Source: Methanocaldococcus jannaschii DSM 2661
GTDB lineage: Archaea; AGJL01; Methanococci; Methanococcales; Methanocaldococcaceae
DNA length: 32,000 nt
Direction of reading: 5' to 3'
NCBI RefSeq assembly: GCF_000091665.1
Contig: NC_001732.1
Location: 6,486-38,485 of the forward strand
The notes below the pieces were generated by a model. That model saw only the letters and a list, made by a program, of their open reading frames with translations, did no database searches and was not told the DNA's origin. Shown here one piece after another: positions 1,622 to 31,564 of the stretch (the first letter of the stretch is position 1; the number at the start of each line of letters is the position of its first letter). Position numbers and translations under genes: made by a program.

Positions 1622-1672
1622 AGAAACATAAAAACCAATTCTATGCATATCCATTTATTTAGGTGTCAATGT

Positions 1673-2677
1673 ATGATTGAAACCATCCACATCAAAAATT
1701 TTAGAGGTATTAGAGAGCTTAAATTGGAAAATTTGGGACAGATAAATATAATTGCTGGGAAGAATAATGCTTCAAAATCAAGTATCTTAGAAGCTTTGGC
1801 ATTGTTTTTAAGTGCAAAGGAGGGGTTTTCATTATTTATAAAAATTTTAAGGGAGATATTACTTTGGAGAGGATGGTATGGTGAAAAAAGTATTTATGAT
1901 TTGTTCTATAAAAATTCTAAAGAACTTGAAGTAAGTGTTAAGTTCTTAAATCAAGATTTTGCAAATTTAACCCTAAAAAATTCTAATCAAAGTTTTGCAA
2001 ATAAAAATATTGCAGTAGAACTTAAATCTGATAAAAATTCTTGGAGTGGACGTTTTGATTCACATTTAATACATCCAGATTATATATCATCAATATTAAC
2101 CTCTGCAGAGGCTACACAAAGTAATTTTGAATTTATAACATCCTTAACATTAATAAAGTTTGGATATATTGAGAGCATATACTCTCAAGCCTATGAGACT
2201 CAAGTTTTACAGGATGCTATAAGATTGCTTAGAGAAGCATACCCAGAAGTTAAAAGTCTAAGCCCTCTCCAAAAGTATAACAAGTGGATAATTCATGTTT
2301 AAACTGAATATGGAGTTTATCCATACTATGTAATGGGAGAAGGGTTTAAAAGTGCTTTAATAATTGCATTATTAACCTCTATACTAAAAAATGGTTATCT
2401 TTTGATAGATTCAGCTGAAGCCTTTCATCACCCCTCCTCACTTGAAATTACTTCACAAATGCTTACAAAATCTGTAAAGAATAATAACGTTCAAGTATTT
2501 TTAACCACTCACAGCCTTGAATTGATAGACTTCCTCCTTGAACATGCCAGTAAAGAAGGTATAGAGGGCAGATTAATCTACATGCGTAGAGATGGGGAAA
2601 ATTTAATTAGCAGTATGGAATCCTTTGAAAATGTTAGGGAAATGAGAGAAACTCTCGGAATTGATTTAAGGGGGTAA
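1673..2677 (+). pseudogene. ABC/OLD-type (RecF/SMC-like) ATPase interrupted by an in-frame TAA at 2300-2302
   Basis: ORFs 1643..2302 and 2333..2677 share one frame and are separated only by TAA. The likely start is ATG 1673 (AGGTG upstream). N-terminal half: IKNFRGIRELKLENLGQINIIAGKNNASKSSILEAL. C-terminal half: GEGFKSALIIALL, LLIDSAEAFHHP, VFLTTHSLE. Confidence 0.7.
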
Positions 2678-2679
2678 TC

Positions 2680-3405
2680 ATGAGGATTTTATTACTTGAG
2701 GGAATTACGGATGTTGCATTCTTCATTCCAATATTAAAGAAATTATATGGTTTTTCAGAAATTAGTTGTGATGGTATTATTAGAGCAGAAAAAATGGGAG
2801 ATATATCAAAACCAATATGTTTAGAGAATGAAGATGTTAAGTTGATAGTTTTCCACTCTGGAGGAAAATCAAAACAAAAACATGCTTTGACAGCAATGCT
2901 TACGGCTATTAAAATGGGTTATTTATCTAATATTAAAATCTTGGGCATTGCAAGGGATATAGACCAAGAGCATGATGTCAAAAACTGGACAAAGAGTATA
3001 ATAAAAAATGCTGGATTTGAAGTTAAAGAGGGTGACAAATTTTTGATTATAGAGGATTTAAACTTAAAAATAGCTGTTTTGGGTATTGCTAATTATGATG
3101 AGGATGATTTTAACATCCCATCATTTGAACTAAAAAGAGAACTCGAGGCAGTAATTACTGATATGGCTAAAGAAATCAGCATCATAGAAAAATTCAAAAA
3201 CTCTTTAGAATCATTAAGTAACGATGCTGAAAGAAGATTAAAGCCAAAAGACATAACGCACGTTTTAGCCATTGCTAAAAATTTTGACGGAGACTCCATG
3301 TCTGGCTTATATAGGAAATTTATTGAAGAGCAGATAAATAATAAAAATAAAGTGAACTTTTTATTAACACTAATATGTATTCTACCATGCCTCACCATCT
3401 TTTAA
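2680..3405 (+). CDS. Toprim-like protein (OLD/AriB/RloB-like nuclease partner of the ATPase)
   Basis: The start lies 2 nt after the ATPase stop, with GGGGGT upstream. MRILLLEGITDVAFF supplies the conserved Glu and ILGIARDIDQEHD about 85 residues later supplies the DxD, which is Toprim spacing. Confidence 0.55.
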   Translation: MRILLLEGITDVAFFIPILKKLYGFSEISCDGIIRAEKMGDISKPICLENEDVKLIVFHSGGKSKQKHALTAMLTAIKMGYLSNIKILGIARDIDQEHDVKNWTKSIIKNAGFEVKEGDKFLIIEDLNLKIAVLGIANYDEDDFNIPSFELKRELEAVITDMAKEISIIEKFKNSLESLSNDAERRLKPKDITHVLAIAKNFDGDSMSGLYRKFIEEQINNKNKVNFLLTLICILPCLTIF

Positions 3406-3674
3406 CTCTTTTAAACATTTTGATAAAGATTTATGACATCTTTTACATCCTTTACTTCGACAACATCCTCCTCAATCTTAAAAATCTGCACAATTACCTC
3501 AATGTTCAATATTTGGACTTTTATTTTTTGAGATTCCTAAAAAAACTCTAAGGATTGTGCTTATTTTAAAAACACTAACAGGGTGAAAATAAAAAGTTGC
3601 AACTAAAAATAAGGAATGTTTTATTAGAATATTTAAAATTAAATAAACACGTTTTGAGAGTTTGTAATCTAACA

Positions 3675-3700
3675 GTGAATTGACTTCAAAGTCAATTCAC
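3675..3700. repeat. Palindrome family copy P1 (GTGAATTGACTT-CA-AAGTCAATTCAC)
   Basis: Perfect 12+12 nt inverted arms around a CA centre, read directly. Confidence 0.95.
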
Positions 3701-4201: not shown

Positions 4202-6001
4202 ATGTGTTATAATTTTGAAAATGTTAAAAAAGCTTATGAGGATCAACTTAAAAACTATATAAAAAATAGTTTAATTCCTAACCTCTCCTCACATGCAAAT
4301 AATGAAGTAGTTAAAATTTCAATGAAAAAACTGGCTAACTTGGGTTTTGGATATTTAGTGGATAGTACATTATCAAGTATAACTGGATATTATAAAGTTA
4401 GAGATTGGATTGAAGAATTATTAAAAGAGGAATTACAGAAATCTGGAGAAAATAAATGTTGTAATATAGTATTATGTGATTATCCAGAAGAGTTTGAGAT
4501 TAGCATGAGGGAAATTCCTTATTATGTTAATAAGGTTGTAAAATTTAATGGTGTTATTATTTCAGCATCATATCCTTGTGTTCTTTCTAAAAAACACTTA
4601 TATATATGCCCTAAATGTGGAAGGATAAAAGAAGTTTATTTTAGTGAATTATTTTGGGATGATAAGGTTTTTTGTGAATTTTGTGGAGGAAAGATGGAAT
4701 TTGCAAATGTGATGGATTATGAAAATTTTCAGGAATTAGTAGTCCAAGATTTATCTGATGAGAGTGAGTATTATGGTATTGAAAAAAACCCAATAGTTTG
4801 GTACTGTGGTGCAAAACCATATTATTTTGGACATGTGAAAATTACGGGAATTGTAAGGGAAGTTCCCAGAAGCTCAAAAAGTCGTATTTATGAGTTGATA
4901 GTTCAAGCTATAAATGTTGAAAAATTGGGAGTTGAAAAATCTCTAATAAATTTAACTGAAGAAGATGTTAAAAATATTAAGAAAGTTGCAAAGAGGGGAG
5001 ATATTATTGACATATTGGCTGATATATTGATCCCACCACTCCTCTGTGATGATGCGATTGTTAGAAAAGCCATACTTATACAGCAAATAGCCCCATATTT
5101 AGAGGACATAGGCAAGATTAACATTCTACTAGTAACGGAAGTTGGTATTGACAAGACAGCCATTCTAAAGAGAATTGGGAATATTCCTGGAAATAATTTT
5201 ATAAACATAGCGGCGTTGAAGGAGGAGGAATTAGCCACACCTTATGATAAAAGAAGTAATATACTGGGAAAATTTTATACTGTATGTGGAGGTGTAATTC
5301 CAAGGACTCTTGGAGTATTATGTATTGATGATTTTAACGAGAACAATAAATTAAGTACAAAATTATCTGAAGCTTTTGAGAGGAATGTTCTTACAACTAA
5401 TAAGGGTTCATTTTATTGCGTTCCCGCTGAGTGTAGTTTCTTATGTGCATGCTATCCTAAAACGAAATTTAGAAAGTTTGATCAAAAGAAAAGTATTATA
5501 AAACAGATAGGGATTTCGTCAATTTTATTAAAAAATTTTGATTTAATATTTCCAATTAGGGATATTCCCGACAAGGATAGGGATGAAGAGGTGGCAAAAT
5601 ACATTTTTCTAAAGTATATAAACTCAGATAATGAAGAAATTGAAGGATATGATTATGTATTTGTAGATGTTGGTGGAGAAAAAATAAAAATTGATTTTGA
5701 ATTTTTAAAAAAATATGTTGTTTACTCAAGACAAATAACTCCAAAAATAACTGATGAAGTCATAGAAAAAATTTCAAACTGGTATGATGAAATGAGGAAA
5801 AATCATTATATCACTGCAAAACAATTAAATACTGTTATAAAACTTAGTATAGCAGTAGCAAGGGCAAAATTAAAAGAGTGTGTTGATGAAGATGATGTCA
5901 AAGAGGCAATAGATATAATAATGCACTATTTAAAACAAGTTGTTTATAATCCAAAAAAGGGAATTATTGATGTTATTTTGTTGTATAAAAACAAAACATA
6001 A
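4202..6001 (+). CDS. mcm: MCM-family AAA+ protein with degenerate catalytic motifs
   Basis: GGGTGA lies 5 nt before ATG 4202; the ORF track starts at GTG 4193 inside the RBS. The C4 zinc ribbon is CPKC...CEFC (4607-4684). INILLVTEVGIDKTAILK, GVLCIDDFNE, NVLTTNKGSFYCVPAECSFLCACYP, NFDLIFPIRDIPDKDRDEEVAKYI and ITAKQLNTVIKLSIAVARAKL are colinear with the MCM core. Confidence 0.8.
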   Translation: MCYNFENVKKAYEDQLKNYIKNSLIPNLSSHANNEVVKISMKKLANLGFGYLVDSTLSSITGYYKVRDWIEELLKEELQKSGENKCCNIVLCDYPEEFEISMREIPYYVNKVVKFNGVIISASYPCVLSKKHLYICPKCGRIKEVYFSELFWDDKVFCEFCGGKMEFANVMDYENFQELVVQDLSDESEYYGIEKNPIVWYCGAKPYYFGHVKITGIVREVPRSSKSRIYELIVQAINVEKLGVEKSLINLTEEDVKNIKKVAKRGDIIDILADILIPPLLCDDAIVRKAILIQQIAPYLEDIGKINILLVTEVGIDKTAILKRIGNIPGNNFINIAALKEEELATPYDKRSNILGKFYTVCGGVIPRTLGVLCIDDFNENNKLSTKLSEAFERNVLTTNKGSFYCVPAECSFLCACYPKTKFRKFDQKKSIIKQIGISSILLKNFDLIFPIRDIPDKDRDEEVAKYIFLKYINSDNEEIEGYDYVFVDVGGEKIKIDFEFLKKYVVYSRQITPKITDEVIEKISNWYDEMRKNHYITAKQLNTVIKLSIAVARAKLKECVDEDDVKEAIDIIMHYLKQVVYNPKKGIIDVILLYKNKT

Positions 6002-7840: not shown

Positions 7841-8945
7841 ATGAAATTTTTCAACAGGGAGAAAGAGATTAATGAGATACTTCGAATTTTAAATAGAGAG
7901 CCAGACGATATTTATTTTATATATGGACCCTTAAACAGTGGAAAAACTACTTTAATAAATCACATAATAAACAATGAATTAAAAAAATCCAATAAAAAAT
8001 ATGCTGTCTTTTATGTTAATTTCAGAGAGTATGATATTTACATCAATGGATAATTTTGTTGAGGCATTGTTTGAAATAGACGAAAATTCGAAAGAAAAGA
8101 AGATAAAATCATACATAGAGAGTTTTACAAAGGGAGTTAATGATATTATAAACTTATACTATGGGATAAAGATTCCAGAGCCAATATTGGATAAGTTTTT
8201 TGGAGAAAAAGAAAAGGGGGGATTGGTTTTTAAGTTTATTAGAGATTTATTTATGAGTTTGAATAAGAAGGGAGTTCAGCCAGTATTCATTTTAGATGAA
8301 TTGCAGATGATTAAAGATATTGTTATGAATGGAGGAAAGCCATTATTAAAAAGCTTATTCCAATTTTTGGTTTCTTTAACAAAGGAGAGGCACATAGCAC
8401 ATGTTTTTTGCCTAAGTTCAGATAGTTTGTTTATTGAGTATGTTTATAATGCTGGAGAGTTAGAAGGAAGGGCGAAATATCTATTGGTTGATGATTTTGA
8501 TAAAGAAACTTCCTTAAAATTTATGGACTTTTTAGCAGTAGAAGGAAATATTAACTTAACTAATGAAGATAAAGAGTTAATTTATTCTTATGTTGGGGGA
8601 AAGGCAAAGGACATAAAGTATGTTATTGAAGAAAGTAAGTTTAAAGACTTAAGAGAGGTTTTGGACTTTATGTTAAAAGATGAGGTTTCCAAATTGAGAA
8701 AATTATTGGTTAAGATAAAAACTAAAAAGATTGCAGAAGTTGAGTATGAAAATGTTGTTAAAGCATTAAAATTATTTAAAGACAATTATGAAATCAACGA
8801 ATACCTTATGGACGAGAATACAAAAGAATTCTTAATTAAAAGGAATATCTTATTCTTAAACCCCGTAGAGGAGATTTTAAAGCCACAAAGTTATTTAGTT
8901 TGGAACGCAATAAAAAGAGTATTACAAAATATAAACGATTTTTAA
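7841..8945 (+). pseudogene. 'Archaeal ATPase' family P-loop NTPase, frameshifted near 8030-8045
   Basis: ORF 7841..8053 ([14 protein letters not shown]...GPLNSGKTTL...FYVNFRE) and ORF 8001..8945 (...[17 protein letters not shown]...FILDELQ...) together align end to end with the intact neighbour 8962..10059. The frame changes after FYVNFR at the (ag)3 run. Confidence 0.75.
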
Positions 8946-10329: not shown

Positions 10330-10330
10330 T

Positions 10331-10415
10331 CCGAACGCCTCCCTCATCGACACCCGCTCCCCTTTACGGGGACAGACCCCCTACTGCCCCGATAGGGACA
10401 GCTAGGAAGTAGCCT
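10331..10415. ncRNA. GC-rich island with two tandem CCCC...GGGGACAG hairpins; candidate structured RNA or 3' element
   Basis: ccgaacgcctccctcatcgacacccgctcccctttacggggacagaccccctactgccccgatagggacagctaggaagtagcc stands out against AT-rich flanks. The hairpins are tcccc-tttac-gggga and ctgcccc-gata-gggacag. Confidence 0.25.
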
Positions 10416-10445
10416 TAAACTTTAATAATACTTATTATTGATAAA

Positions 10446-10754
10446 GTATTATACGTTCATACATATAAAAAATGTGAGAAAAATGAGAAAATAAAATATG
10501 TAATTTAAATTGTTAAGATTTAATAGTTTAAACGTGTGAAAAATGCTTGTTTTTAGAACATTGTATAATGTATTATGTAAATTATCTTTGGATATAATTA
10601 AAAATGTAAGAAAACCATTGAGATTTGGTGTAAAAGAGGGATAGATTGATTATATTGAAAAAAGTTTATGTTGTAAAGTGTATATTCATAATTGGTTTTT
10701 ACTAATGGACAAAATTATACAGTTTAAAATTTAAGTTTATAAATTAGTATTATT
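10446..10754 (+). repeat. Left copy of ~309-bp direct repeat
   Basis: The ends align nearly perfectly with 12770-13078 (gttcatacatataaaaaa..gagaaaaatgagaaaataaaa..atgtaatttaaatt ... aaaaccattgagattt..gtgtaaaag...agattgattatatt..aaaaagtttatgtt..taaagtgta...acaaaattatacagtttaaaatttaagtttataaattagtattatt). The centre is diverged. Confidence 0.85.
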
Positions 10755-10829
10755 CTCTTTTAGAATTTCTGCTATATGTTTAAAGCAGTTTTTCAATATT
10801 TATAATATAATTAAATCGTATGTTTGAAG

Positions 10830-10851
10830 TGGACTTTAGCCCCAAAGTCCA
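10830..10851. repeat. Hairpin tggacttt-agcccc-aaagtcca, related to the GACTT..AAGTC core of the palindrome family
   Basis: 8-bp perfect arms read directly. Confidence 0.7.
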
Positions 10852-10894
10852 ACAATGGTTAAAAATTTTCGGACACCATGCCAAAACATAGAGC

Positions 10895-10987
10895 AGATGC
10901 CACTGCAGTATATACAATATTATAATATTATATTATCAATGGCATACAGTGGCATCTCCAGAGAAGTGTAAATCCAATATGCCACTG
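10895..10987. promoter_or_regulatory. Origin-like element: AGATGCCACTG / CAGTGGCATCT inverted repeat around a 41-nt almost pure A/T spacer, plus a third ATGCCACTG
   Basis: AGATGCCACTG lies at 10895-10905 and its exact complement at 10947-10957. The spacer is cagtatatacaatattataatattatattatcaatggcata. ATGCCACTG recurs at 10979-10987. Confidence 0.4.
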
Positions 10988-11088
10988 AATATATAAAAGA
11001 AAACTATAATAATCCCTATTTTCAAAAAATAACTGTCATTACATAGCCTTGTTTGGTGAAAACACAGAAAAATTTGTAGTGATGTGTT

Positions 11089-11235
11089 ATGGGTATTATA
11101 GGTTTTGTTAATGCATTAGCTAACGTCTTTATACTACTTATATTAGGTATGGTAGGTATTTTTATTTTTGCATGGTTTTTGTTTTGCAGAGAAGATGAAG
11201 AGACAATTAGAAAAATAAAAGAAGATGATTGGTGA
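11089..11235 (+). CDS. Possible 48-aa single-pass membrane protein
   Basis: Own translation: MGIIGFVNALANVFILLILGMVGIFIFAWFLFCREDEETIRKIKEDDW*. This is one clean TM helix plus a charged tail. It is below the ORF-track size cutoff and the RBS is weak. Confidence 0.3.
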   Translation: MGIIGFVNALANVFILLILGMVGIFIFAWFLFCREDEETIRKIKEDDW

Positions 11236-11837
11236 AAGTGTGAAGTTATTAAAGATTTTTCTATTTGTTTTGTTTTGTAGTTAGAGTAGTTCTAAGTTGT
11301 GGTTGTATTGGAGATGAATGCACTCCACACCCATAGGCACTATAAGCGCGTTGAAAAGATGAATACAGTTTGTTCATGGAATGTGATAAAATTCATTAAA
11401 AATGAGTTTAAAACAATTCTTCACAATTCTTTAGGAGGATACTATGAGGTTGGTAAACTCTTTATTATAGCAGTGGCAACAAAACAGAAACAACCCTAAC
11501 TCTTTTATTAAGAATACCAACACCACCAAAACATCACCCAAAGCACCCTTATGAATAAAATGAACATCACACGAGAATCCACTCCCCTAACACTCTTTTT
11601 ACCCAACACCTTAACAACATTCATGAAACACCACACACAAACAAATCCTAAAATCAAAACATGCCACTGTATAAAACTATTGATAATAATTAATAATATA
11701 AAAATTATCAAACTTAATACTACCAAAACAAATAAAATAAATTCCCACCACAAAACAAAACAAACAAATATTATAATCACCAAACAATATAAAAACAATA
11801 ATATTATGTAAATTCCCATTAGGGAAAAGGTGAAAAC

Positions 11838-12282
11838 ATGCTCAAAAAACTATTTGGAAAAGACGATGAAAAAACAGACGAACGAATTAAAAAATTAGAA
11901 AACAGAATAGAAAAAATAGAATTAGAGTTAAAAACCATAAAAAACACAAGTTCATACCCACAAATTATAAGAATAGAAAAAGAACTCCAACAAATAATAA
12001 AAACAGACATTGACAAACTAACAACCCTATACATCAAACTCCAACCCAAACCCAACACCATAGAACAAACAAAAAATCATACAAATACTAAAACACGAAC
12101 AACCCCTACAATCATCAAAAATAGTAGAAAAACTAAAACCAAACATAAAATCAAAAGGAACAATCTACCAAGCCCTAAAACAACTACAAAAAGAGAAAAA
12201 AATAACAAAAGCCACAGTCAAAGAAAATGGTAAAAGAAAAGTATACTACAAACTCACAGATGAAAACACTGATATAACATAG
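11838..12282 (+). pseudogene. Coiled-coil plus winged-helix DNA-binding protein split by a +1 frame change near 12064-12080
   Basis: A strong RBS (AAGGTGA) precedes ATG 11838. The N-terminal part is coiled coil (ERIKKLENRIEKIELELKTIK...). After about codon 75 the tracked frame becomes low-complexity, whereas the +1 frame is open 12064-12282 and reads KIIQILKHEQPLQSSKIVEKLKPNIKSKGTIYQALKQLQKEKKITKATVKENGKRKVYYKLTDEN*. Confidence 0.6.
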
Positions 12283-12324
12283 AAAACATCCCTAATCCTA
12301 ATTGTTAAAAACATTAATTATCAA

Positions 12325-12364
12325 GGGAGGTTGCCACACTTTTTAAAAAGTGTGGCAACCTCCC
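12325..12364. repeat. Perfect 40-nt palindrome GGGAGGTTGCCACACTTTTT|AAAAAGTGTGGCAACCTCCC
   Basis: Checked base by base: 20+20 nt with no mismatch. It lies 42 nt after the wHTH frame stop. Confidence 0.95.
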
Positions 12365-12651
12365 AAATATTCCTATAAGAAACAAAATTTACCATAAAGT
12401 AATAAAAACCCCATAAACTTATTTTCCTATAGGATAAATGCCATTGACTATTAGAAAAACAACACTCTTTTATGCCACTGCTAACACACAATAAATTTCC
12501 ACATTCTATACACAATAAAGTGTTTTTAACCGTAATTTTCAACATTGGACTAACCACTCTAACAGAAATGTGAAATACCCCACACACTTCCAAGACATGA
12601 AACGCCCCTTATTTTTCAATTTTTCAATTGTATTTACTAACATTCACAAAA

Positions 12652-12687
12652 GAGGAACAGCCAATTTTTAAAAATTGGCTGTTCCTC
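12652..12687. repeat. Perfect 36-nt palindrome GAGGAACAGCCAATTTTT|AAAAATTGGCTGTTCCTC
   Basis: Checked base by base: 18+18 nt with no mismatch. It shares the TTTTTAAAAA centre with the 12325 palindrome. Confidence 0.95.
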
Positions 12688-12769
12688 CAACACCATAAAA
12701 ATGCAGACAACAAACCAAAAACCCATTAAGCAACATACTGAGATTGAATTATTACAACCTATAAAAATA

Positions 12770-13078
12770 GTGTTATATGTTCATACATATAAAAAACATG
12801 AGAAAAATGAGAAAATAAAAGATGTAATTTAAATTATTGTAATTTTTCTATTTTTGTGAGTAAATTGTGTTTAGTTTAAGAAGTATTCCCCACTTATTAT
12901 GTAAGTGGATTATTTACTCCACTAAAAATGTAATAAAACCATTGAGATTTAGTGTAAAAGATGAATAGATTGATTATATTAAAAAAAGTTTATGTTATAA
13001 AGTGTACCTTGATAATCAGTTTTCACCAATAGACAAAATTATACAGTTTAAAATTTAAGTTTATAAATTAGTATTATT
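12770..13078 (+). repeat. Right copy of ~309-bp direct repeat
   Basis: See 10446-10754. Confidence 0.85.
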
Positions 13079-13103
13079 GAAAACTAAATAATAAATTATG
13101 TGT

Positions 13104-13349
13104 TTAAATATTTATTGTTTTTAGTATTTGTTCAAATTCTGTGTATTTGATTTTGACTGGGAATAATAGTACGTTTCCAAAAAAGTTATTTTTATATTTC
13201 AATCCTTTAATGTTATATACCATGCTAATGTATTCTAAGATTGTATCAACAATGCTATCATTTAAGTCTCCCAATACAATTCCATAATAAGTTTTCCAGT
13301 AATCAGCAATATCATCTTCTTTTAAAGGATTAAAAAGTGATTTACCCAT
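13104..13349 (-). CDS. Hypothetical protein, 81 aa
   Basis: The ORF has normal amino-acid composition (MGKSLFNPLKEDDIADYWKTYYGIVLGDLNDSIVDTILEY...). A degraded copy of its 5' part lies at about 21300-21400. A palindrome copy sits 2 nt upstream of the start. Confidence 0.5.
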   Translation of the reverse strand: MGKSLFNPLKEDDIADYWKTYYGIVLGDLNDSIVDTILEYISMVYNIKGLKYKNNFFGNVLLFPVKIKYTEFEQILKTINI

Positions 13350-13351
13350 AT

Positions 13352-13375
13352 TGAATTGACTTTGAAGTCAATTCA
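13352..13375. repeat. Palindrome family copy P2 (TG centre, i.e. P1 in opposite orientation)
   Basis: tgaattgactt-tg-aagtcaattca, with perfect 11-bp arms. Confidence 0.95.
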
Positions 13376-13429
13376 CGATTATGGAAATAGTGAAACAGTG
13401 TTAGAATAAAACAAAAAGGGTAAATAAAC

Positions 13430-13633
13430 TTATTTCTTCAAAGCTAGTTTTACGTCTTCGACTTTTACTGTTTTTCTCTTTGCCATGTTTTGCCAAGTCA
13501 ACAGCTTCTTTAGCTATTTCCAAAGCTAAATCTTCTATAGCCTCAGCAAAGTATTCCGCTGCAGCCCTACTAACTCTCTCAGCCCCATCCTTTTTTAATA
13601 TCCTTACAAACGGTGCAACTGAAGCTCAGCCAT
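13430..13633 (-). pseudogene. Archaeal histone gene with two compensating frameshifts (-1 near codon 5, +1 near codon 50)
   Basis: It has the same 204-nt length as the intact histone gene (29732-29935) and keeps RBS, ATG and TAA. My alignment shows actgaagctc versus actggaagctc (1 nt lost) and 67 versus 66 nt between ctttgc and gtattc (1 nt gained). The central 45 codons ([43 protein letters not shown]) are out of frame with both ends. Confidence 0.8.
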
Positions 13634-13699
13634 AACACCACCCAAAAAAACTTATACTCAAAAATTATCAATTAAAACCTACAAAAATATTACTATTTT

Positions 13700-13990
13700 T
13701 GTACATATACACCTCCCAATATTATAATATTCTACAATACAATAATTACATAATACCACAATACAATAATCCAAAATCATGCTAAAGAAAAATCCAATAA
13801 AACCCAAAAGAATAACATGATTACATAATAAAACAATACAACAATTAATTAATAACATAATAAAAATAAAAACTTGTTAAAATTATAATATTTTAAACTA
13901 ACTAAAAAGAAAATAAAAATATAAAAATTAAAAGAGGGGGAGAGCCCGAGAGGGGAAGGGGAGAAAATGAGAAAAGTGGAAATACTATAA
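13700..13990. repeat. Arm 1 of a long inverted repeat (partner 31640-32000) with GC-rich polypurine core
   Basis: The reverse complement of 31640-31760 aligns with 13850-13985 (ataaaaataaaaacttgt..aaatt ... aaaattaaaagagggggagagcccgagaggggaaggggagaaaatgagaaaag). Core: 13934-13962. Confidence 0.7.
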
Positions 13991-14174
13991 ATAGAATATG
14001 AAACTGTCAGTTTAACTTTTATCAATAATATAGGTAAAAAATAGTAAAATATGAGGCTCACGATAGTGGCTATAAAGGAGAGAATCGTGGAAAAGAAGTA
14101 TTCAGATTAAGAAATTGCGTAGAAATCCTTCTTATTGCTTAAACGAAGAATTAAAGCATTCTATAACAGATTTC

Positions 14175-14262
14175 TTAATAATAGTAGATTCAATACGGTA
14201 ATTAGCTGGATAAAAAGCTTCATGATGTTCTATAATTGGATGCAATTGTTAACTTGACAACC
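14175..14262. repeat. Left copy of ~90-bp direct repeat flanking the helical-repeat gene pair
   Basis: ttaataatagtagattcaatacggtaattagctggataaaaagcttcatgatgttct...gttaacttgaca aligns with 15674-15763. The minus strand of both copies reads like a decayed protein C-terminus ([16 protein letters not shown] / HEVFNPANNSIKFTIL). Confidence 0.65.
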
Positions 14263-14396
14263 TCTAATAGAATAACCCTACCATCAAGTATTTTACCAGT
14301 ATTTTTTAGATTTTAAAGGTAAAAGATTTCTTTGGTGTTAAAATAGATTAGGAGTATAGAAAAGTTGATTATTTGGTTAATCCGTAGGTGATTTTT

Positions 14397-18289: not shown

Positions 18290-18605
18290 TTCAAATTTTT
18301 GGTAATATATTTTTAATTACATTGAAATCAAATATATGTACATACTCCTTTTCCACATCTTAATATTACAATATTATCAATTCTCGAATTTTCCTTCCTG
18401 TTTTTAAATCGATATAAATATGACGTCTTCCATTACATTTTAACATCACACGATTATCTTTTATAGATATTGACTCTATATCCCACTCAGTTTTGAACTC
18501 CCAAATTTTATCTCCAGTTTTTAGATTAATGGCAGAGATACATCTTCTTCCACATTCTAATACTGCAATACCACCTCTAATAGATAAACTTCTTAATTCT
18601 AACAT
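18290..18605 (-). pseudogene. Decayed PQQ-like beta-propeller blades (includes the 79-aa ORF 18366..18605)
   Basis: The 79-aa ORF has two blades (INLKTGDKIWEFKTEWDIESISIKDNRVML...). Downstream in another frame the sequence reads DNIVILRCGKGVCTYI*FQCN*KYIT, which parallels the end of the 827-aa protein (DNIVISGCKRGHVYALDFNIIKNYSI). Confidence 0.5.
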
Positions 18606-18647
18606 CTTAACACCATTATCTCTACTGATGTTGAATTAATTTTTGAA

Positions 18648-21119
18648 TCATAATACTTGTTTGATTTTTTGTATTATTGAGTAGTTTTTAATTATATTGA
18701 AATCAAGGGCATAAACATGTCCTCTTTTACATCCTGATATTACAATATTGTCTTTGATGGACAAATCTAACACTGCACTTTCTGTTTTAAACTTCCATAT
18801 TTCCTCACCAGTGTTAATATCAAGAGCATAAAGATAATTATCACATCCTAATAATACAGCATCATTTTTAATAGACAAACCATTCACATCCCCATCTGTC
18901 TTAAATGCCCATAAATTCTCCCCTGCATTAATATCAAGAGCATAGACACATTCTCGATTACATCCCAATATTACAATATCATCTTTAATAGATAATCTTA
19001 ATACAGACCCTACTACCTTAAATCTTTCCATCTTCTCTCCTGTATTAATATCAAGAAGATAAACATAACCTCCCCTACATCCCAACAATACATTATCCTT
19101 TTTAATAGATAAACTCTTTACCTCTCCTTCTGCCTTAAACCTCCATAGTTCTCTACCAGTGTCAATATCAAGAGCGTAAAGATAATTATCACATCCAAAT
19201 AGCAAAATGTCATTTTTTATGGATAAATTCCGTATGGATTTTCCTGATTTTGCTTTAAACTCCCATAACATATTTCCTGCATTAATATCAAGGGCAAGTA
19301 TATATCCTTTTTTACATCCCAACACAACAATATCGTCTTTAATAGATAAACTCCTTACATCATGCTTTATCTTAGACCTCCATATTTCTCTTCCTGTATT
19401 AATATCAAGAGCATAAGCATACCCTTCCTCCAATATTTTTCCATTTTTCAACATGACAATGCTCTCAAATATATTTCCACATCCTAATACAACAATATCA
19501 TCTTTAATAGACAAACCCCATACTGTATCCTCTGCCTTGAATTCCCATAATTTCTTACCAGTTTTAATATCAATGGCATAAACATGTCCCGAAACACATC
19601 CTAATATTACAATATCACCTTTAATAGATAATAACCTTACACCCCCCTCTGCCCTAAACTCCCACAATAACTCATCTACTCTTTTAATCCCTAAAATATC
19701 CAATATAAACTTACCAACATTAATTGCTAACTCATCATTTGAGTTATTTACCAATTCAATTAACTTATTCATATAATAATTAAATACAGCCCTATTTTCA
19801 TTGAAAATGTTTTTAAATCTGCTGTATATTTCTTTATAGTTTGATGTGTTTAAATTATCTATCTCTTGTTTTAGGATTTTGTCAATTTTTTCTGGCCTCA
19901 TGTCATCTACATTATCTCCTTTAAATTTTGTAATTGTTAATACTTCTGTAAATCTTTCTTTGTATCGTATGTTAAATTCATCTTCAAACTCTACAACAAT
20001 ATCTATCGGTAGTTTTCCTTTAACTTTTGGATTTATAAAAAGGTTAATGACTTTTGTGTCTCTTCCTCTAATTTTTATCGGCTCTATGTCTTTAAATAAA
20101 ATATCTTCTTCGTTTATTATTGAAATTTTCGATATTGTTATATCTTTTAATGATTTGTTTGTTATTTGTATTGGTAGTTCATCCCATTCATTCAAATTAA
20201 GTGATTTTTTTAATAGGGTTAAATCTATCTTTACTATTTCTTTCATTATATTAGTTAGTTGTGGCCTAACTCTTTGTATTTTTGAATACAGGTTAGTATC
20301 AAGGGCATAGACACACCCCCACATGTCTGCCAATATAGTAACATCCCCACTTATCAATAAATCACTTACATGCCACTCTCCACCAAACTCTAATATTTTC
20401 TCACCTGTTTTAATATCAAGGACATAAAAATATTCACACCCATATTCATCCTCACATCTCAATATTATTTTATCATCTTTGATAGATAACTCCCATACAC
20501 ACCACTCTGCTTCAAACTCCCACAATTTACCTCCTGTCCTAACATCAATAGCATAAATGTATTTATCCCCATCACCCAATATAACAATATTATCTTTGAG
20601 AGAAAAACCCCACATACGCTCTCCTACCTTGGACTCCCATATTTTATCCCCAGTCATAACATCAAGAACGCAAACATGCCCACCTCTATATTCCAACATT
20701 ACAATATTATCTTTGATGAATAAACTATCTACATTGTGCTCTACTTTATATTCCCATATTTTATTCCCTGTCTTAATATCAAGGGCAAAAAGATGGTTAC
20801 TACACCCTAATATTATAATATTATCTTTGATATCTTTGATGGACAAATCCCATACACTCCCCCCTGCCTTAAACTCCCATATTATGCTATCTTTTAAAAT
20901 ACATAACATAAACTTATCAATTTCAAGTGATAACTCATTATCATCTAAATTTTTCATTAACTCAATTAATTTATCCACGTAATAATTAAATATATCTCTA
21001 TTTTTGCTAAAAACATTTTTAAATTTGTCATATATTTCTTTATAGTTTGATACGTTTAAATTATCTATCTCTTGTCTAATGTTTTCAACTCCATTGATTT
21101 TATTTTCTACAAAAACCAT
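18648..21119 (-). CDS. PQQ-like beta-propeller repeat protein with internal tandem duplication
   Basis: GGTGA precedes ATG 21119 (the track starts at 21131). There are many ~40-aa units such as DI.TGK.LWEFKAE..V..LSIKDDIVVLGC..G.VYALD. A helical module occurs twice (EIDNLNVSNYKEIYDKFKNVFSKNRDIFNYYVDKLIEL / EIDNLNTSNYKEIYSRFKNIFNENRAVFNYYMNKLIEL). No signal peptide was seen. Confidence 0.8.
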   Translation of the reverse strand: MVFVENKINGVENIRQEIDNLNVSNYKEIYDKFKNVFSKNRDIFNYYVDKLIELMKNLDDNELSLEIDKFMLCILKDSIIWEFKAGGSVWDLSIKDIKDNIIILGCSNHLFALDIKTGNKIWEYKVEHNVDSLFIKDNIVMLEYRGGHVCVLDVMTGDKIWESKVGERMWGFSLKDNIVILGDGDKYIYAIDVRTGGKLWEFEAEWCVWELSIKDDKIILRCEDEYGCEYFYVLDIKTGEKILEFGGEWHVSDLLISGDVTILADMWGCVYALDTNLYSKIQRVRPQLTNIMKEIVKIDLTLLKKSLNLNEWDELPIQITNKSLKDITISKISIINEEDILFKDIEPIKIRGRDTKVINLFINPKVKGKLPIDIVVEFEDEFNIRYKERFTEVLTITKFKGDNVDDMRPEKIDKILKQEIDNLNTSNYKEIYSRFKNIFNENRAVFNYYMNKLIELVNNSNDELAINVGKFILDILGIKRVDELLWEFRAEGGVRLLSIKGDIVILGCVSGHVYAIDIKTGKKLWEFKAEDTVWGLSIKDDIVVLGCGNIFESIVMLKNGKILEEGYAYALDINTGREIWRSKIKHDVRSLSIKDDIVVLGCKKGYILALDINAGNMLWEFKAKSGKSIRNLSIKNDILLFGCDNYLYALDIDTGRELWRFKAEGEVKSLSIKKDNVLLGCRGGYVYLLDINTGEKMERFKVVGSVLRLSIKDDIVILGCNRECVYALDINAGENLWAFKTDGDVNGLSIKNDAVLLGCDNYLYALDINTGEEIWKFKTESAVLDLSIKDNIVISGCKRGHVYALDFNIIKNYSIIQKIKQVL

Positions 21120-21405: not shown

Positions 21406-21429
21406 TGAATTGACTTTAAAGTCCATTCA
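21406..21429. repeat. Palindrome family copy P3 (TA centre, one arm mismatch)
   Basis: tgaattgactt-ta-aagtccattca, ending 154 nt upstream of the parA start. Confidence 0.85.
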
Positions 21430-21583
21430 TCCCTTAACATTCCTTATAAAGAAATACTCTATAAAAGTTTATTATTACATTATTGCATTAAACAGTTAAA
21501 CATATAACCAATAATTTAAATATGAAATAATGTAATGCCATAATACTGTAATAAAATAATAGAATATCTAATGGTGAGAGTTT

Positions 21584-22363
21584 ATGGTTGTAATTTCAAT
21601 TGCAAATCAAAAAGGGGGTGTTGGAAAAACAACAATAGCATTAAACCTATCATTTACACTTGCAGAAAAGGGGTATGATACTTTAGTAATCGATTTAGAC
21701 CCACAATTCAACTTATCCTTTGGAATTTTGGGAATGAAATTATTAGATTATGCTGATAAAAATATTGGAATACTATTATCAAAAAATTCTGTTAAGAAGA
21801 AAGAAATTGAAGAGTCTATTATAAAAATTAATGATAAGTTAGATTTAATCCCCTCCCACTTGCAGCTTTCTGCTGTAGAAAAAATGTTAGTTAATGCTTA
21901 TGCAAGGGAAATGAAGTTGAAAAATATCATTAACCAAATCAAAGAAAATTATGACTACATAATAATTGATAATGCCCCATCATTAGGACTATTTTTAATA
22001 AATTCATTAGTGGCATCTGATTATATTATCATCCCATGTGAGCCAAGTTATTTTAGTATTGCAGGAGTTCAACTAATGTTAGATACTGTTGAGGAAATAA
22101 AAGAATCAAACTTGAATCCAAAACTTAAAGTTTTAGGGTTTATTTTCAACAAGTACTCTAAACAATCAAAAATTCCACAAAAGAGGTTAGAACAGTTAAA
22201 ACAACTCTATCCTAACATTCCAGTAATTGGAGTAATTCCAAGAACTATTACTGTTGAAAAGGCAGAACGTGAGGGAAAACCTGTGTTTAAATTTGATGCT
22301 AATAATCCTGCAAGTGTTGCATTCTCAGAACTTGCTGAGTGGGTGATAGAAAATGTCAAATGA
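21584..22363 (+). CDS. parA: ParA/Soj/MinD-family partition ATPase
   Basis: GGTGAG RBS. Deviant Walker A NQKGGVGKTT (21605-21634), DLDPQ, and IIIDNAP Walker B. Confidence 0.92.
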   Translation: MVVISIANQKGGVGKTTIALNLSFTLAEKGYDTLVIDLDPQFNLSFGILGMKLLDYADKNIGILLSKNSVKKKEIEESIIKINDKLDLIPSHLQLSAVEKMLVNAYAREMKLKNIINQIKENYDYIIIDNAPSLGLFLINSLVASDYIIIPCEPSYFSIAGVQLMLDTVEEIKESNLNPKLKVLGFIFNKYSKQSKIPQKRLEQLKQLYPNIPVIGVIPRTITVEKAEREGKPVFKFDANNPASVAFSELAEWVIENVK

Positions 22364-24036: not shown

Positions 24037-24062
24037 GTGAATTGACTTTGAAGTCAATTCAC
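24037..24062. repeat. Palindrome family copy P4 (TG centre, full 12+12)
   Basis: gtgaattgactt-tg-aagtcaattcac, 20 nt downstream of the stop of the 162-aa gene. Confidence 0.95.
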
Positions 24063-28000: not shown

Positions 28001-28864
28001 TATTGGAGTTAACAATTTTTCAATATCTTCTTCATCTGTCAACTGGGCTATTGTAACACATGGTCTTGGACTACCATATTTTTCCTTATAATTGTAAGTT
28101 CCTACCAGCCTATCAACTCTTGCCAAATCATACATTGCAATATCTGCCCCTAAATCTTCAGCAATCATTCTTAGTAGTATTAATTCTTCTTCTAAAATAG
28201 GTCTTTCAGGATATAATATGAATCTTAATCCTCCCCCAGTAAATGCCACTTTATGTGGAAGTATATCCTTCTCTACGAATTTTGATAAATATTTAATCAA
28301 TTTTTCCATAATTTCTTCTTCTGTAGGCATTTTGTTTGTCTTCCACTCTTCAACGTCAAAATCAAATGCAATATAACTCCAAGCAGTGGCAGCTCCCGCA
28401 TCCCCTCTTTTTTCCTTTCTTGGGGCAATTCCGACATAAACCCCATCTAATCTTCTTTTCTTTTGTTTTTTAATATACTCATACTGTTTTTTTATTAATT
28501 TTATGATTTCTTCAGTTTTTTCTAAAATATTATCAACGTGTAAATCTGAAATATCTATGAAAAATTGTTTTTTACCCTTAAATTTTCCTAAAAATCTAAT
28601 TTCTAAATACTTAAACTGTTTTACTAATTTTTTCAAAATTTTTTCTAAATGAGTTTCTCCAAGATATACTGAAAATTCTTCTTTATGTTTGACAATCAAA
28701 AATAGCAACTGTGCAATGTGTAATTTTAAATCAGATTCTAAAATATCATCTGAGATATTGTAAATTCCACTAACATTTATTTGATACTTATCAAAAATAG
28801 CTTTTACAGTTTGATCATCCCAATACCGCAAACTTTTTATACTATTAGATAGTATATTATTCAT
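25046..28864 (-). CDS. Archaeo-eukaryotic primase (AEP) domain, SF2 DEAH helicase and C-terminal winged helix; candidate plasmid replicase
   Basis: GGTGA lies 8 nt before the ATG. The AEP motifs are SYIAFDFDVEEW, AFTGGGLRF and DLARVDRLVGTYNYK (about nt 28055-28447). The helicase motifs are FLKADTGRGKTY, LLAIDEAHDL, LLTATP, VISEGVNI and QFIARCRNGG (about nt 26465-27397). The C-terminus is ALEKLKKLGVIYEPKPGLLRIT. Confidence 0.7.
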   Translation of the reverse strand: MNNILSNSIKSLRYWDDQTVKAIFDKYQINVSGIYNISDDILESDLKLHIAQLLFLIVKHKEEFSVYLGETHLEKILKKLVKQFKYLEIRFLGKFKGKKQFFIDISDLHVDNILEKTEEIIKLIKKQYEYIKKQKKRRLDGVYVGIAPRKEKRGDAGAATAWSYIAFDFDVEEWKTNKMPTEEEIMEKLIKYLSKFVEKDILPHKVAFTGGGLRFILYPERPILEEELILLRMIAEDLGADIAMYDLARVDRLVGTYNYKEKYGSPRPCVTIAQLTDEEDIEKLLTPIILYEKFGIIENYKEFEVLFNEKREELYNKRGLNNITTTINRLIKKPNLNKTILQDINKRIYKWLYTIQDKLTKKLGKRWIEKLLSYLGIDYKYGKNGTRLDLWSLFFDDGKNPDCSIYINEGYNAVMVDFHDPNMRFIALAGLWMIKEFRDKIIEFLKLHNINPKPSTYRTVREIMNELLDRETIKIEAEGYLPKEAIIKAYQLSIEQGVPVFLKADTGRGKTYTLTRNTREIKEVFKKHAIAVAFPYKIQVLQVGAGLHADGVVVPMYYEDGKKLDKNTIHYLTIGTYDQVENMLNDLCYDTYKGEKIQVANEEDILLAIDEAHDLVIQKEFRKRAITGVKKCIDRAGGCVLLTATPELINLNNYPVIEVEFKDEKKLFERCSIHIAKNIIGEFCEYILLMFRQGWIKNAVVLVDNKKMIENIKYTLELYGFNKPIYVITRETVGIDKASKMIINEEKVPEEGLILATRVISEGVNIKNHVDLVWALYCKSATTIRQFIARCRNGGGELIVTAPFKEREEEPMIIDYNAMIEMFKENYKLLKEYLETDIEVLKELDKNYKKVLISQIQNAIYYDEEKKDWVLDEDEIAHIYNSLLEAHITRDYKLLKEYLEKTTGYEFAIKTIKELKESKLDKFLKYNYLEYLEKVSAKHIIIAFKEYGVNEIKNALEYNNYKKFKDCRDEYTPQLIKKHSKRINRSINVLKDVYNIPEVIEVYNLMLNKGKDDDKKSNLDENTIKKCLEEINEYKKIVKEINENEDRKTKKIYHIDLKLLEEHKDKLSTLARIIEELILKTFLCPPSKWGKIQRIIRAVWNIVVGEDDERLDRRKLGLRSLVAKVLIKVRDFAIERQKFKIRELIEVIKEECGFTLTLDEVRRLIRAIFNCVIRGVKKLGENAVVEIKELNKEFKTLYEIIKQNINSNSVEKCEKVIEKKIEENGGEILEMELYELIVEKLKFVEEVFYKALEKLKKLGVIYEPKPGLLRIT

Positions 28865-29077
28865 TGGTCACTCACCTTACTGTGGGTAGTATATATTCAT
28901 TGGTCACATCTCTTGGTCATACACCTCGACCATGCCTACACTAAATACTCCCTAATGTTGCAATACCTTAACATATAATGCAATACAATACTGAGCTCTT
29001 TTGATACAATCTATGTAATTTAAAGAGTATAAGAAACATTTTCAGGGGGCGACCATTTCTATATTATTTTTTGAAGT

Positions 29078-29246
29078 ATATAAACTTTTAGTTATTTTTT
29101 GAATTTGTATATTTGGATTTATATCATATAACTTTTTCTGAAAATTTTTCCTGACATATCTATTAGGTAGTTAGTATATATATATTTTTCGGATTTTTGC
29201 ATGTTTTTACACTTTATCTTCTAATTTTATAACTAAAAGTTTATAT
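29078..29246. repeat. 18-bp perfect inverted repeat pair (29078-29095 and 29229-29246) in the AT-rich gap next to the replicase gene
   Basis: ATATAAACTTTTAGTTAT and ATAACTAAAAGTTTATAT are exact reverse complements, separated by 133 nt. Confidence 0.9.
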
Positions 29247-29935: not shown

Positions 29936-30199
29936 AACACTACCTCTTTGTATATGTAGAGTGTAGAAGCTCTAATAACCTACAAAGTGGGAGTTCAAAT
30001 TTGCTAAACTTTAAGCTCCCTTAATGGAAACTCGAAACTAAAATAAGTAAAACCATAATACAATAATACAATCATTCAATAATATCATAAAATCATAATT
30101 TAGTAATGCAATAATCCAATAACTCCACAATAACATAATAAAATAACTTTGAGTTTCCACTAAAAGAAATTCAAAGGTGGGGTTAATAAATTTCTTATA

Positions 30200-30223
30200 T
30201 GAATTGACTTCAAAGTCAATTCA
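30200..30223. repeat. Palindrome family copy P6 (CA centre)
   Basis: tgaattgactt-ca-aagtcaattca followed by caaaaaaga, as in P1. Confidence 0.95.
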
Positions 30224-31540: not shown

Positions 31541-31564
31541 TGAATTGACTTTAAAGTCAATGCA
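31541..31564. repeat. Palindrome family copy P7 (TA centre, one arm mismatch)
   Basis: tgaattgactt-ta-aagtcaatgca. Confidence 0.85.

Follow-up and report, generated by a model that had tools for sequence, protein, structure and literature searches.

A conserved non-coding module, present twice in a gene-poor region of the large extrachromosomal element of Methanocaldococcus jannaschii, as a candidate plasmid control region

The question raised by this locus is whether a 2.6-kb segment bounded by direct repeats is an inserted element or a native part of the plasmid that carries it. The segment (positions 10446-13078) lies in a 32,000-nucleotide stretch of DNA, referred to here as the window, which is part of the large extrachromosomal element (ECE) of Methanocaldococcus jannaschii type and has 28% G+C and 72% A+T. 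The ECE is taken here as a double-stranded plasmid of 58 kb. A preliminary description read the segment as a captured small plasmid or virus remnant, or as a mobile cassette, with the replication or control region of the whole replicon as a fallback. It is the fallback that is favored here. We consider the balance to lean toward the segment being part of a gene-poor, rearranged, and partly decayed plasmid control region of about 4 kb that contains no inserted element. This gene-poor stretch extends from about 10330 to 14390 and holds many cis-elements and pseudogenes. To our knowledge, nothing has been established by experiment on the replication and control of M. jannaschii extrachromosomal elements. 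We likewise know of no archaeal order whose replication initiation is less understood than that of the Methanococcales, and of no canonical Orc1/Cdc6 recognized or replication origin mapped in the order of Methanocaldococcus.

The direct repeats at 10446-10754 and 12770-13078 are present and beyond chance, at a constant offset of 2324 nucleotides. They had been called near-identical, which holds for their ends and not for their cores. The first 70 nucleotides or so are approximately 91-93% identical, and 10599-10754 and 12923-13078 are 91% identical. The middle 85 nucleotides or so are only approximately 50% identical and are essentially unrelated. BLAST aligns the whole pair at 80.5% identity over 318 nucleotides (E 3e-76). 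The repeats are copies of a module of about 320 bp, termed copy A (left) and copy B (right). No third copy was found in the window by a repeat search or with an nhmmer profile.

Three further copies were identified, each single, on contigs L001 (984-1302), L015 (3060-3383, the same as in L017), and L063 (8029-8337), for a total of five copies on related hydrothermal-vent plasmids. L015/L017, a 22-kb contig, was reached with a degenerate DNA pattern taken from the repeat, for which a metagenome scan returned two contigs. L063, a 59-kb ECE-like contig, was reached by a search with the 1272-amino-acid (aa) helicase-type protein of the window. The five copies can be aligned over approximately 320 bp, and in each of them homology stops abruptly at the same positions. 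Over its full length, copy A is 77% identical to the L015 copy (3066-3381) and 75% identical to the L063 copy (8025-8340). A profile built from four copies gave no additional match in the window or the other fetched loci. Scans of viral contigs for the module returned no matches, and no similar DNA was found in the PLSDB plasmid and INPHARED phage collections. A scan of a genome collection based on P0001, an intact orthologue of an interior gene described below, returned 512 pattern matches and no confirmed relative.

The core of the module, 85 bp in length, falls into two types. Type A is present in copy A, L015, and L063 (61-75% identity), and type B in copy B and L001 (71%). Cores of different type are 40-50% identical, which is the background for such A/T-rich DNA. 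The module ends group by host lineage instead, with copies A and B sharing 88-94% identity and L001 and L015 sharing 83-96%. Contigs of the L001 type and of the L015 type share source samples (3300026382, ERZ27262631, and SRR7968106). Judging from these alignments, types A and B co-occur in two independent lineages, with ends that appear homogenized in each and cores that stay distinct. The likeness of the ends may have arisen by gene conversion between copies or by co-evolution with a lineage-specific factor. Because the ends cluster by lineage while the cores are distinct, the near-identity of the repeat ends is taken to be secondary and not an integration scar. A TGTGTTTAAATATTTATTG box and a GACTTT-type palindrome recur 3' of the module in copy B, L001, and L063, and are degenerate after copy A. 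Their recurrence beyond the module argues that the ancestral unit was longer than the present repeat.

The right part of the segment has an orthologous counterpart in L001, the closest relative. Positions 237-843 of this contig correspond to window 11678-12284 at 87% identity (the coiled-coil and winged helix-turn-helix (wHTH) gene with 160 nucleotides upstream), and positions 883-1593 correspond to window 12639-13376 (the 36-nucleotide palindrome, module B, and the region of an 81-aa open reading frame, or ORF). Window 12285-12638, a stretch of 354 nucleotides that holds the 40-nucleotide palindrome, is missing from L001. The left flank of L001 corresponds to the parA upstream region (window 21480-21681, reversed), and its right end to the beginning of the 1272-aa gene together with the DNA before it (window 28707-29121, reversed). 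Collinearity begins at 11678 and crosses the right repeat to 13376, and the segment is therefore not a discrete unit. The break in synteny falls inside the segment, and this relative shows no empty site at the repeat boundaries, such as an inserted element would leave. No relative of the left interior block (10755-11677) was found in any fetched locus.

The distance from the module to a replication gene is 0.5-2.2 kb in all three relatives, and this proximity, together with the gene-poor 4-kb setting, favors a replication or control region. The module lies 2.2 kb upstream of the rep start in L001. In L063, the type A module is 0.78 kb upstream of an 89%-identical rep gene. It follows an intact histone gene, which shares 90% identity with the histone pseudogene of the window. 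In L015, it lies 0.54 kb downstream of a 744-aa Rep-like gene, beside ten GGTTAAAA iterons. In M. jannaschii, the modules are 12-15 kb from the 1272-aa gene and the histone is inverted relative to L001 and L063, which fits a rearranged backbone. L015 is a different element, with its 744-aa Rep-like protein, its iterons, and a small tyrosine recombinase, and by tblastx it has only the module in common with the window. The L015 iterons are located at 2562-2948 (5055-5441 in L017), between the Rep-like gene and the module, with ten present against 0.9 expected. This array is likely the origin of the L015 element, and the motif is not enriched in the window. Separately, an element integrated in the M. 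vulcanius M7 chromosome (543092-565479; L020) has a gene for a homologue (46% identity) of the L015 Rep-like protein, along with histone, RelB/ParE, and tyrosine integrase genes, and adjoins a gene for a class-I aminoacyl-tRNA synthetase. It contains neither the module nor the ATGCCACTG motif, and the view that the module goes with the Rep744 family was therefore rejected.

The TATA consensus of M. jannaschii, TWTATATA, and the position of the box have been described (PMC2699501). The minus-strand sequence TTTATATG or TTTTTATA is the sole match to this consensus (at most one mismatch) that is common to all five copies. It lies in alignment columns 60-70, in two registers that are two nucleotides apart. 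Predicted starts are at 10438-10441 and 12762-12765 on the minus strand, at the left edge of conservation, with the box at about -30 to -23. The core contains three-part complementary words, CCACT/AGTGG/CCACT in type B and ATAAT/ATTAT/ATAAT in type A. In the core hairpin, four to five pairs change on both sides between types and are thus compensatory. The consensus RNA fold of the whole module is weak (-19 and -12 kcal/mol), and covariation was found only in the central hairpins.

These features are consistent with a module that would act in cis as a promoter-bearing control region, with an outward TATA box and a start at the left edge of the module. The leftward transcript would run into stable hairpin-forming sequence within approximately 20-110 nucleotides. 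The hairpin encountered would be the GC-rich island for copy A, the 36-nucleotide palindrome for copy B and L001, and a CAGAGGCAT-N13-ATGCCACTG hairpin for L015. The type-specific core would serve as a binding or pairing determinant. The two T5A5-centered palindromes would most likely be bidirectional stop or hairpin elements between convergent transcription units. Such a promoter-bearing cis-control module of the plasmid backbone is ranked first here, with an origin or primer promoter as its main rival. The module may additionally be a replication origin.

The composition of the segment had been described as foreign. The amino/keto skew is real, and positions 11451-12350 contain 52% A, 21% C, 8% G, and 19% T. 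The plus strand is as poor in G as had been reported, with no G at all at 11700-11799, and the tract has a GC skew of -0.47 and an AT skew of +0.43. Codon usage also differs as proposed, with T at 7-15% of third positions in the wHTH gene against 31-48% in 22 other window ORFs. The remainder of the claim does not hold, as the G+C content equals that of the flanks and the skew occupies about half of the segment and recurs at 13601-13950. The skew is present at synonymous sites and non-coding flanks alike, and is therefore mutational and not driven by protein composition. The orthologous tract of L001 (176-1050) has the same skew and likewise ends at the left edge of a type B module. Approximately 0.8 kb to the right of that module, the L001 skew has the opposite sign. 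No skewed tract is present to the left of the type A copies (copy A, L015, and L063), and short A/C-rich tracts occur upstream of rep in L063 and L065. Substitution counts between the window and L001 are roughly symmetric except for C/T (8 vs. 1). From this comparison, the skew is a conserved property of the wHTH block, shared with its orthologue, and no mark of a recent repeat-bounded insertion. It could stem from deamination of an often single-stranded minus strand, or alternatively from a foreign origin of the wHTH block.

Contigs from other assemblies bear on the proposed excision across the flanking repeats. The 131-aa, 81-aa, and 70-aa ORFs of the locus are carried by 16, 10, and 12 such contigs, respectively (approximately 38 in all). 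These reproduce the window order at 99-100% identity, including the passages from the left flank through module A into the interior and from the interior through module B into the right flank. The contigs are short and of limited weight as evidence, and no collapsed or circular-junction form was found among them. No aligned contig connects unique left-flank to unique right-flank DNA over a single repeat, and only the unexcised arrangement is seen.

On these results, a captured small plasmid or virus remnant, or a mobile cassette placed between the repeats or creating them and lost by recombination, is a very unlikely account of the 2.6 kb and is largely refuted. In its favor, the repeats are direct and 2324 nucleotides apart, the composition is aberrant over some of the interior, and an acquisition could account for the left interior block without relatives. 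In addition, no interior gene is demonstrably intact, with the wHTH gene frameshifted and the 48-aa and 66-aa ORFs without homologues. Against this, the cores (approximately 50% identical) belong to two old types, each with orthologues that occur singly elsewhere, and the right repeat with the right half of the interior is collinear with L001 well past the segment end. The odd composition neither fills the segment nor stays within it, and other assemblies hold only the intact arrangement. No integrase, rep gene, or transposase is present among the interior ORFs according to the ORF list and a Pfam scan, which returned only a PadR-like regulator; the earlier remark that no integrase is recognizable is thus confirmed. 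No target-site duplication was found at the segment. The most doubtful of the readings considered is that the module itself is a non-autonomous mobile element, similar to a miniature inverted-repeat transposable element (MITE) or palindrome-associated transposable element (PATE), with its transposase encoded elsewhere. This would explain its presence in unrelated replicons, its sharp homology edges at equal positions in all copies, and its being all that L015 and the window share. The module and flanking hairpins of L015 are bounded by 13-nucleotide inverted termini (TTAGCAGTGGCAT...ATGCCACTGCTAA), and GTATTAT is present at both module ends. The inverted termini were not found around copy A, copy B, L001, or L063, and GTATTAT is conserved inside the element in every copy and is thus no target duplication. 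Only five copies are known, none dispersed in the window beyond the two; the metagenome scan returned just the two contigs, and the hairpin pattern occurs in viral contigs at chance level. It is also quite unlikely that the module is a small protein gene with its promoter, in which frame +0 would encode a peptide of 33-61 aa and the core types would be alleles of its N-terminus. The frame is open for at least 34 codons in all five copies, has start codons in four of five, and keeps its terminal stop (TAA or TGA) in four of five; the L063 3' end has diverged and has a different end point. The peptide would consist of an amphipathic N-terminal segment followed by the motif RKPLRFGVK. Set against these points, pN is approximately equal to pS (non-synonymous and synonymous differences per site) in within-type pairs except copy A and L063 (0.53, with an out-of-frame control of 0.60), and substitutions are evenly distributed over codon positions. 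The long form has no start codon in L001, the internal stop differs in place between copies, and the peptide belongs to no Pfam or PHROG family. Small-peptide coding was rejected because stop depletion is present without a signal in the ratio of non-synonymous to synonymous substitution rates (dN/dS) or in periodicity.

The main rival, which we regard as a real possibility although clearly the lesser one, is that the module and the ATGCCACTG inverted repeats are where the plasmid starts its replication or controls its copy number. A primer or activator RNA would be transcribed from the conserved leftward promoter, and the minus strand would be displaced as leading-strand synthesis moves to the left. 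A D-loop or R-loop that persists for long would then have left its mark in the G-poor, A/C-rich tract to the left of the type B modules, through deamination of the displaced strand (C to T and A to G), much as is known for the heavy strand of vertebrate mitochondria. The type-specific core would set incompatibility. The distance of 0.5-2.2 kb to rep genes in three replicons fits this account, as do the iterons that the L015 module abuts and the inverted site pair around a largely A/T spacer in the window, where eight such sites are clustered. The skewed tract stops exactly at the left edge of module B in both the window and L001, the L001 skew is reversed farther right, and the presence of the skew at synonymous sites marks it as mutational. 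Two copies per replicon would be odd for an origin, and no skewed tract lies to the left of the type A copies. Runs of T5-T7 abound on the minus strand of the tract, and such runs are expected to stop archaeal RNA polymerase. The M. vulcanius Rep744 homologue has no module nearby, and L063 has no ATGCCACTG cluster near its module. The L015 sites are at or near ORF starts and are operator- or hairpin-like. No orc1/cdc6 gene was found among the window ORFs scanned against Pfam, with MCM, 4.4 kb away, as the nearest replication gene, and the cumulative GC skew of the window is governed mainly by gene orientation. A rather unlikely form of this account is an undescribed origin or copy-control unit that depends on host machinery and uses transcription-primed strand displacement, with core types as incompatibility determinants and the tract as a deamination scar. 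In this case, the outward promoter would supply the primer, selection would hold the core types apart while the ends homogenize, and the D-loop or R-loop would persist at 85 °C.

Several points weigh against the preferred reading of a promoter-bearing control module. A plain promoter would leave the extreme strand skew beside the type B modules unexplained. TATA-like octamers are common in DNA with 72% A+T, so that the promoter call reflects positional conservation among five related copies. A rightward TATA box, TTTATAAA, is present in the window copies only, and the rightward promoter is thus unconserved. The candidate compensatory changes come from two independent types only. The stems of the type A core are pure A/T and would be unstable as RNA at 85 °C, so that a role at the DNA level, through protein binding, is at least as likely. 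Frame +0 is strikingly poor in stops in every copy, with one to two over 66 codons against an expectation of six to seven (P 0.004-0.04 per copy), which hints at a small gene. The single copy of L063 is a count over the roughly 23 kb, out of 59 kb, that were read. A scan of a genome collection with a 22-mer from the repeat returned no matches and missed the source replicon itself; it was uninformative and leaves chromosomal copies uncovered.

Table 1. Coordinates of features in and beside the segment (window positions).
Feature	Position	Strand	Remarks
GC-rich island, 86 nt	10330-10415	-	approximately 63% G+C; directly left of module A; candidate short structured RNA
Module copy A (left repeat)	10440-10756	+	type A core; nhmmer E 9e-82; non-coding
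Conserved leftward TATA-like box, TTTATATG / TTTTTATA	10462-10471	-	near left end of module A
Hairpin TGGACTTT-AGCCCC-AAAGTCCA	10830-10851		8-bp stem, 6-nt loop
ATGCCACTG site cluster	10895-10987		plus-strand sites 10897 and 10979; minus-strand sites 10937 and 10947
48-aa hydrophobic ORF	11089-11235	+	putative gene; no PHROG match, no Pfam match at gathering score
66-aa ORF	11299-11499	+	putative gene; no homologue found (Pfam, PHROG)
A/C-rich, G-poor tract (amino/keto skew)	11451-12760	+	ends at left edge of module B
Coiled-coil and PadR-like winged-helix gene	11838-12282	+	5-nt deletion near 12066/12067
Perfect 40-nt palindrome, T5A5 center	12325-12364		43 nt past wHTH stop; in stretch missing from L001
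Two direct ATGCCAYTG sites	12438-12480	+	34 nt apart, start to start
Perfect 36-nt palindrome, T5A5 center	12652-12687		97% conserved in L001, flanks 79-87%
Module copy B (right repeat)	12764-13080	+	type B core CCACT..AGTGG..CCACT; nhmmer E 3e-83; collinear with L001 984-1302
81-aa ORF, convergent with module B	13104-13349	-	L001 copy without ATG start
Dispersed palindrome copy GAATTGACTTTGAAGTCAATTC	13351-13377		20-nt palindrome at 13354-13373
Archaeal histone pseudogene	13401-13640	-	two frameshifts; inverted relative to L001 and L063; Pfam on repaired translation
Second A/C-rich tract	13601-13950	+	ACAATAAT-like repeats; outside segment

The small structural features that had been reported for the interior are present as described. 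The arms of the hairpin right of module A are the arms of a dispersed palindrome, AATTGACTTTGAAGTCAATT. The inverted repeat consists of AGATGCCACTG (10895-10905) and CAGTGGCATCT (10947-10957) with a 41-nucleotide spacer, the central 30 nucleotides or so of which are almost pure A/T. The ATGCCACTG iterons number six exact copies in the window against 0.1 expected, and the segment holds five of these. The count rises to eight when one mismatch is tolerated, and all eight sites fall within 10897-12480. The extended sequence CAGTGGCATCTC is common to the window pair at 10947-10987 (pair CAGTGGCATCTC...ATGCCACTG) and L015 3385-3420. In L015, the sites form tight inverted pairs on either side of the module (3007-3037 and 3385-3420). 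A third pair at 4895-4925 lies 25 nucleotides past a gene end and approximately 100 nucleotides before the likely start of a coiled-coil wHTH gene. The right half-sites of the L015 pairs coincide with the ATG of long ORFs. No ATGCCACTG clusters were found in L001 or L063. The wHTH gene of L001 is intact, and the sites are therefore not tied to the wHTH protein or to the module as such; binding of the wHTH protein to ATGCCACTG is unsupported for the same reason. The sites could be operators, RNA hairpins, or origin boxes. A CAGTGGCAT-N-ATGCCACTG hairpin was rejected as a widespread element, as its 30 matches in viral contigs are single, compositionally unrelated, and at chance level.

The two long palindromes were also confirmed and are the sole perfect long palindromes in the 32 kb. 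The GC-rich island lies between a 70-aa gene of the MJ0349 family and module A. Its minus strand folds at -37.9 kcal/mol (z -1.98) and its plus strand at -23.5 kcal/mol. The island gave no tRNA or Rfam match and was seen only in contigs identical to M. jannaschii; a tRNA or att-site remnant was rejected, since no tRNA was found. In the whole window, no Rfam match reached the gathering score, and the palindromes gave chance-level matches only (E up to 1). The dispersed 20-nucleotide palindrome, AATTGACTTT(G/A)AAGTCAATT, occurs at six intergenic sites (3678-3697, 13354-13373, 21408-21427, 24040-24059, 30202-30221, and 31543-31562), with 15 strand-hits against 0.1 expected. It is present five times in L063 and twice in L001, and is not present in L017 or L065. 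Its sites are located near histone genes, parA, and modules. The palindrome probably serves the ECE family as an operator or a centromere-like site.

The coiled-coil and wHTH gene that had been noted in the interior is real and is split. The coiled-coil ORF (11838-12233, 131 aa) joins the wHTH frame only after frameshift repair, and its identical database entry reads 'hypothetical protein [Methanocaldococcus jannaschii]'. Compared with L001, the lesion is a deletion of 5 nucleotides between short repeats, which excludes a programmed frameshift at the A-run of the gene. The truncated ORF recurs on 16 contigs of other assemblies, so the lesion is no sequencing error; identical sequences in other assemblies exclude such an error for the histone frameshifts as well. 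The repaired protein matches Pfam PadR (PF03551) over residues 81-142, with 35.2 bits against a cut-off of 27 (E 1.3e-8). A search with it identified the intact orthologue P0001, a protein of 146 aa with 79% identity, in hydrothermal metagenomes (contigs L001-L006). The AlphaFold2 model of P0001 (predicted local distance difference test score of 80.7) begins with two long helices, after which comes a winged helix made up of three helices and a two-strand wing. The best Foldseek matches of this model are YodB, AdcR, LmrR, and PadR, with the MarR fold also represented (E 2e-3 to 2e-2). Between the two versions of the gene there are 7.7 synonymous and 37.3 non-synonymous differences, and the resulting dN/dS of approximately 1.2 indicates apparently relaxed constraint. 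The L001 gene is head-to-head with parA. A coiled-coil wHTH gene in L015 was rejected as a homologue, as it has no BLASTP similarity and shares only the architecture and an M[LF][KR]KLF start.

The 48-aa ORF had been described as a possible membrane peptide. The ORF is present. It was rejected as a conserved gene, since the sole protein similar to it (P0011) is encoded by this very locus in a version with homopolymer errors. Minus-strand hydrophobic ORFs of 103 and 80 aa in the G-poor tract were rejected as membrane genes, since indels and stop codons interrupt the corresponding L001 sequence and a scarcity of A is itself expected to give long antisense ORFs. The stop-depleted frame of the module appears as ORFs of 33-72 aa that share RKPLRFGVK, at window 10543-10644 and 12867-12968, L015 3175-3324, and L063 8109-8327. 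The histone pseudogene beside the segment is identical in contigs from at least 20 samples, and its closest intact relative is L063 6072-6275 (90% nucleotide identity). Gene calls of an '86-aa histone' on contigs of other assemblies run over an in-frame TGA. With the wHTH gene broken, the adjoining histone a pseudogene, and the left interior block without relatives, the interior appears to be decaying.

A block of approximately 105 nucleotides in the 3' part of the 81-aa ORF (window 13098-13200) is 97-98% identical to L001, where neighboring DNA is approximately 79-87% identical. A 40-nucleotide piece of this block is also retained beside the L063 module. The conservation suggests nucleotide-level constraint or recent exchange.

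Other window features lie outside the segment. A/C-rich tracts of ACAATAAT/ACATAATA-like repeats at 13601-13950 and 30041-30143 are upstream of histone loci, and such motifs occur in reverse upstream of parA in L001 and at window 21480-21580. Three histone loci are present in the window, two identified through nucleotide repeats and one (13401-13640) through Pfam on the repaired translation. By Pfam scan, the window encodes an MCM helicase, a ParA ATPase, several PF01637 archaeal ATPases, a PIN-domain protein, and the 1272-aa helicase-type protein. Three successive ORFs at 1643-3405 (219, 114, and 241 aa) resemble fragments of one ATPase and Toprim (OLD-like) gene. L063 has one OLD-like gene of 931 aa in a comparable setting, and the window version may be a fragmented gene. 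An 827-aa ORF at 18435-20838 (minus strand) is composed of tandem units of approximately 117 nucleotides (at least 11 copies, 61-75% identity) and encodes a repeat protein.

A false lead, the mobile cassette, is replaced here by a sharply bounded non-coding module with a promoter-like box and a two-type core. The module is found in four or more replicons, of which two have unrelated Rep proteins, and is a compact candidate fragment for Methanocaldococcus shuttle vectors. The strong local skew could report exposure of single-stranded DNA at high temperature. If the undescribed-origin reading were true, it would mean a mitochondrial- or ColE1-like replication mode in an archaeal order; unless the origin reading is true, the direct payoff is modest.

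Among known systems, archaeal origins have inverted origin recognition boxes (ORB or mini-ORB) around an A/T-rich unwinding element beside orc1/cdc6 (reviewed in PMC4010727). The window has a similar arrangement in ATGCCACTG...CAGTGGCAT, inverted around the 41-nucleotide, largely A/T spacer (10895-10957) with more copies nearby. It differs in that no orc1/cdc6 was found on the window and that the sites are 9-mers, compared with ORBs of approximately 22-36 bp. In L015, moreover, the sites are closely paired in a hairpin-like manner, both at ORF starts and behind a gene. The CAGTGG core of the ATGCCACTG sites presumably resembles the ORB core.

AspA is the PadR-like centromere-binding protein of the partition system of the Sulfolobus plasmid pNOB8. 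The wHTH protein likewise scores above the Pfam PadR threshold, its L001 gene is head-to-head with parA, and perfect palindromes adjoin it. It differs in having an N-terminal two-helix coiled coil, in showing no detectable sequence relation to AspA, which is not among the listed fold matches, and in that its gene is inactivated in M. jannaschii and has a dN/dS of approximately 1.2. The light strand of vertebrate mitochondrial DNA is rich in A+C and poor in G through deamination of the displaced heavy strand. The tract has skew in the same direction and of similar magnitude, with third codon positions affected. Here, the skew is limited to 1.3 kb, plus the second tract of 0.35 kb, of a 58-kb plasmid.

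Plasmids are known to have non-coding copy-control regions, such as ColE1 RNA II/RNA I and R1 CopA/CopT. The module resembles these in being a few hundred bp of non-coding DNA close to rep, in its candidate promoter firing into hairpin-forming sequence, and in a short core that differs between otherwise similar plasmids and could set specificity. It differs in that it is known from DNA alone, in the pure A/T stems of type A, in growth at 85 °C, and in an archaeal host that uses TATA and B recognition elements (BRE). Two different types are present on one replicon, and the module is placed variably with respect to rep, lying upstream of it in L001 and L063, downstream of it in L015, and 12-15 kb away in the window. 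Two of its properties are unusual, namely a pair of core types with concerted ends and a strong local amino/keto skew. The module may thus be regarded as a probable, as yet uncharacterized member of a familiar class, the non-coding control regions of plasmids.

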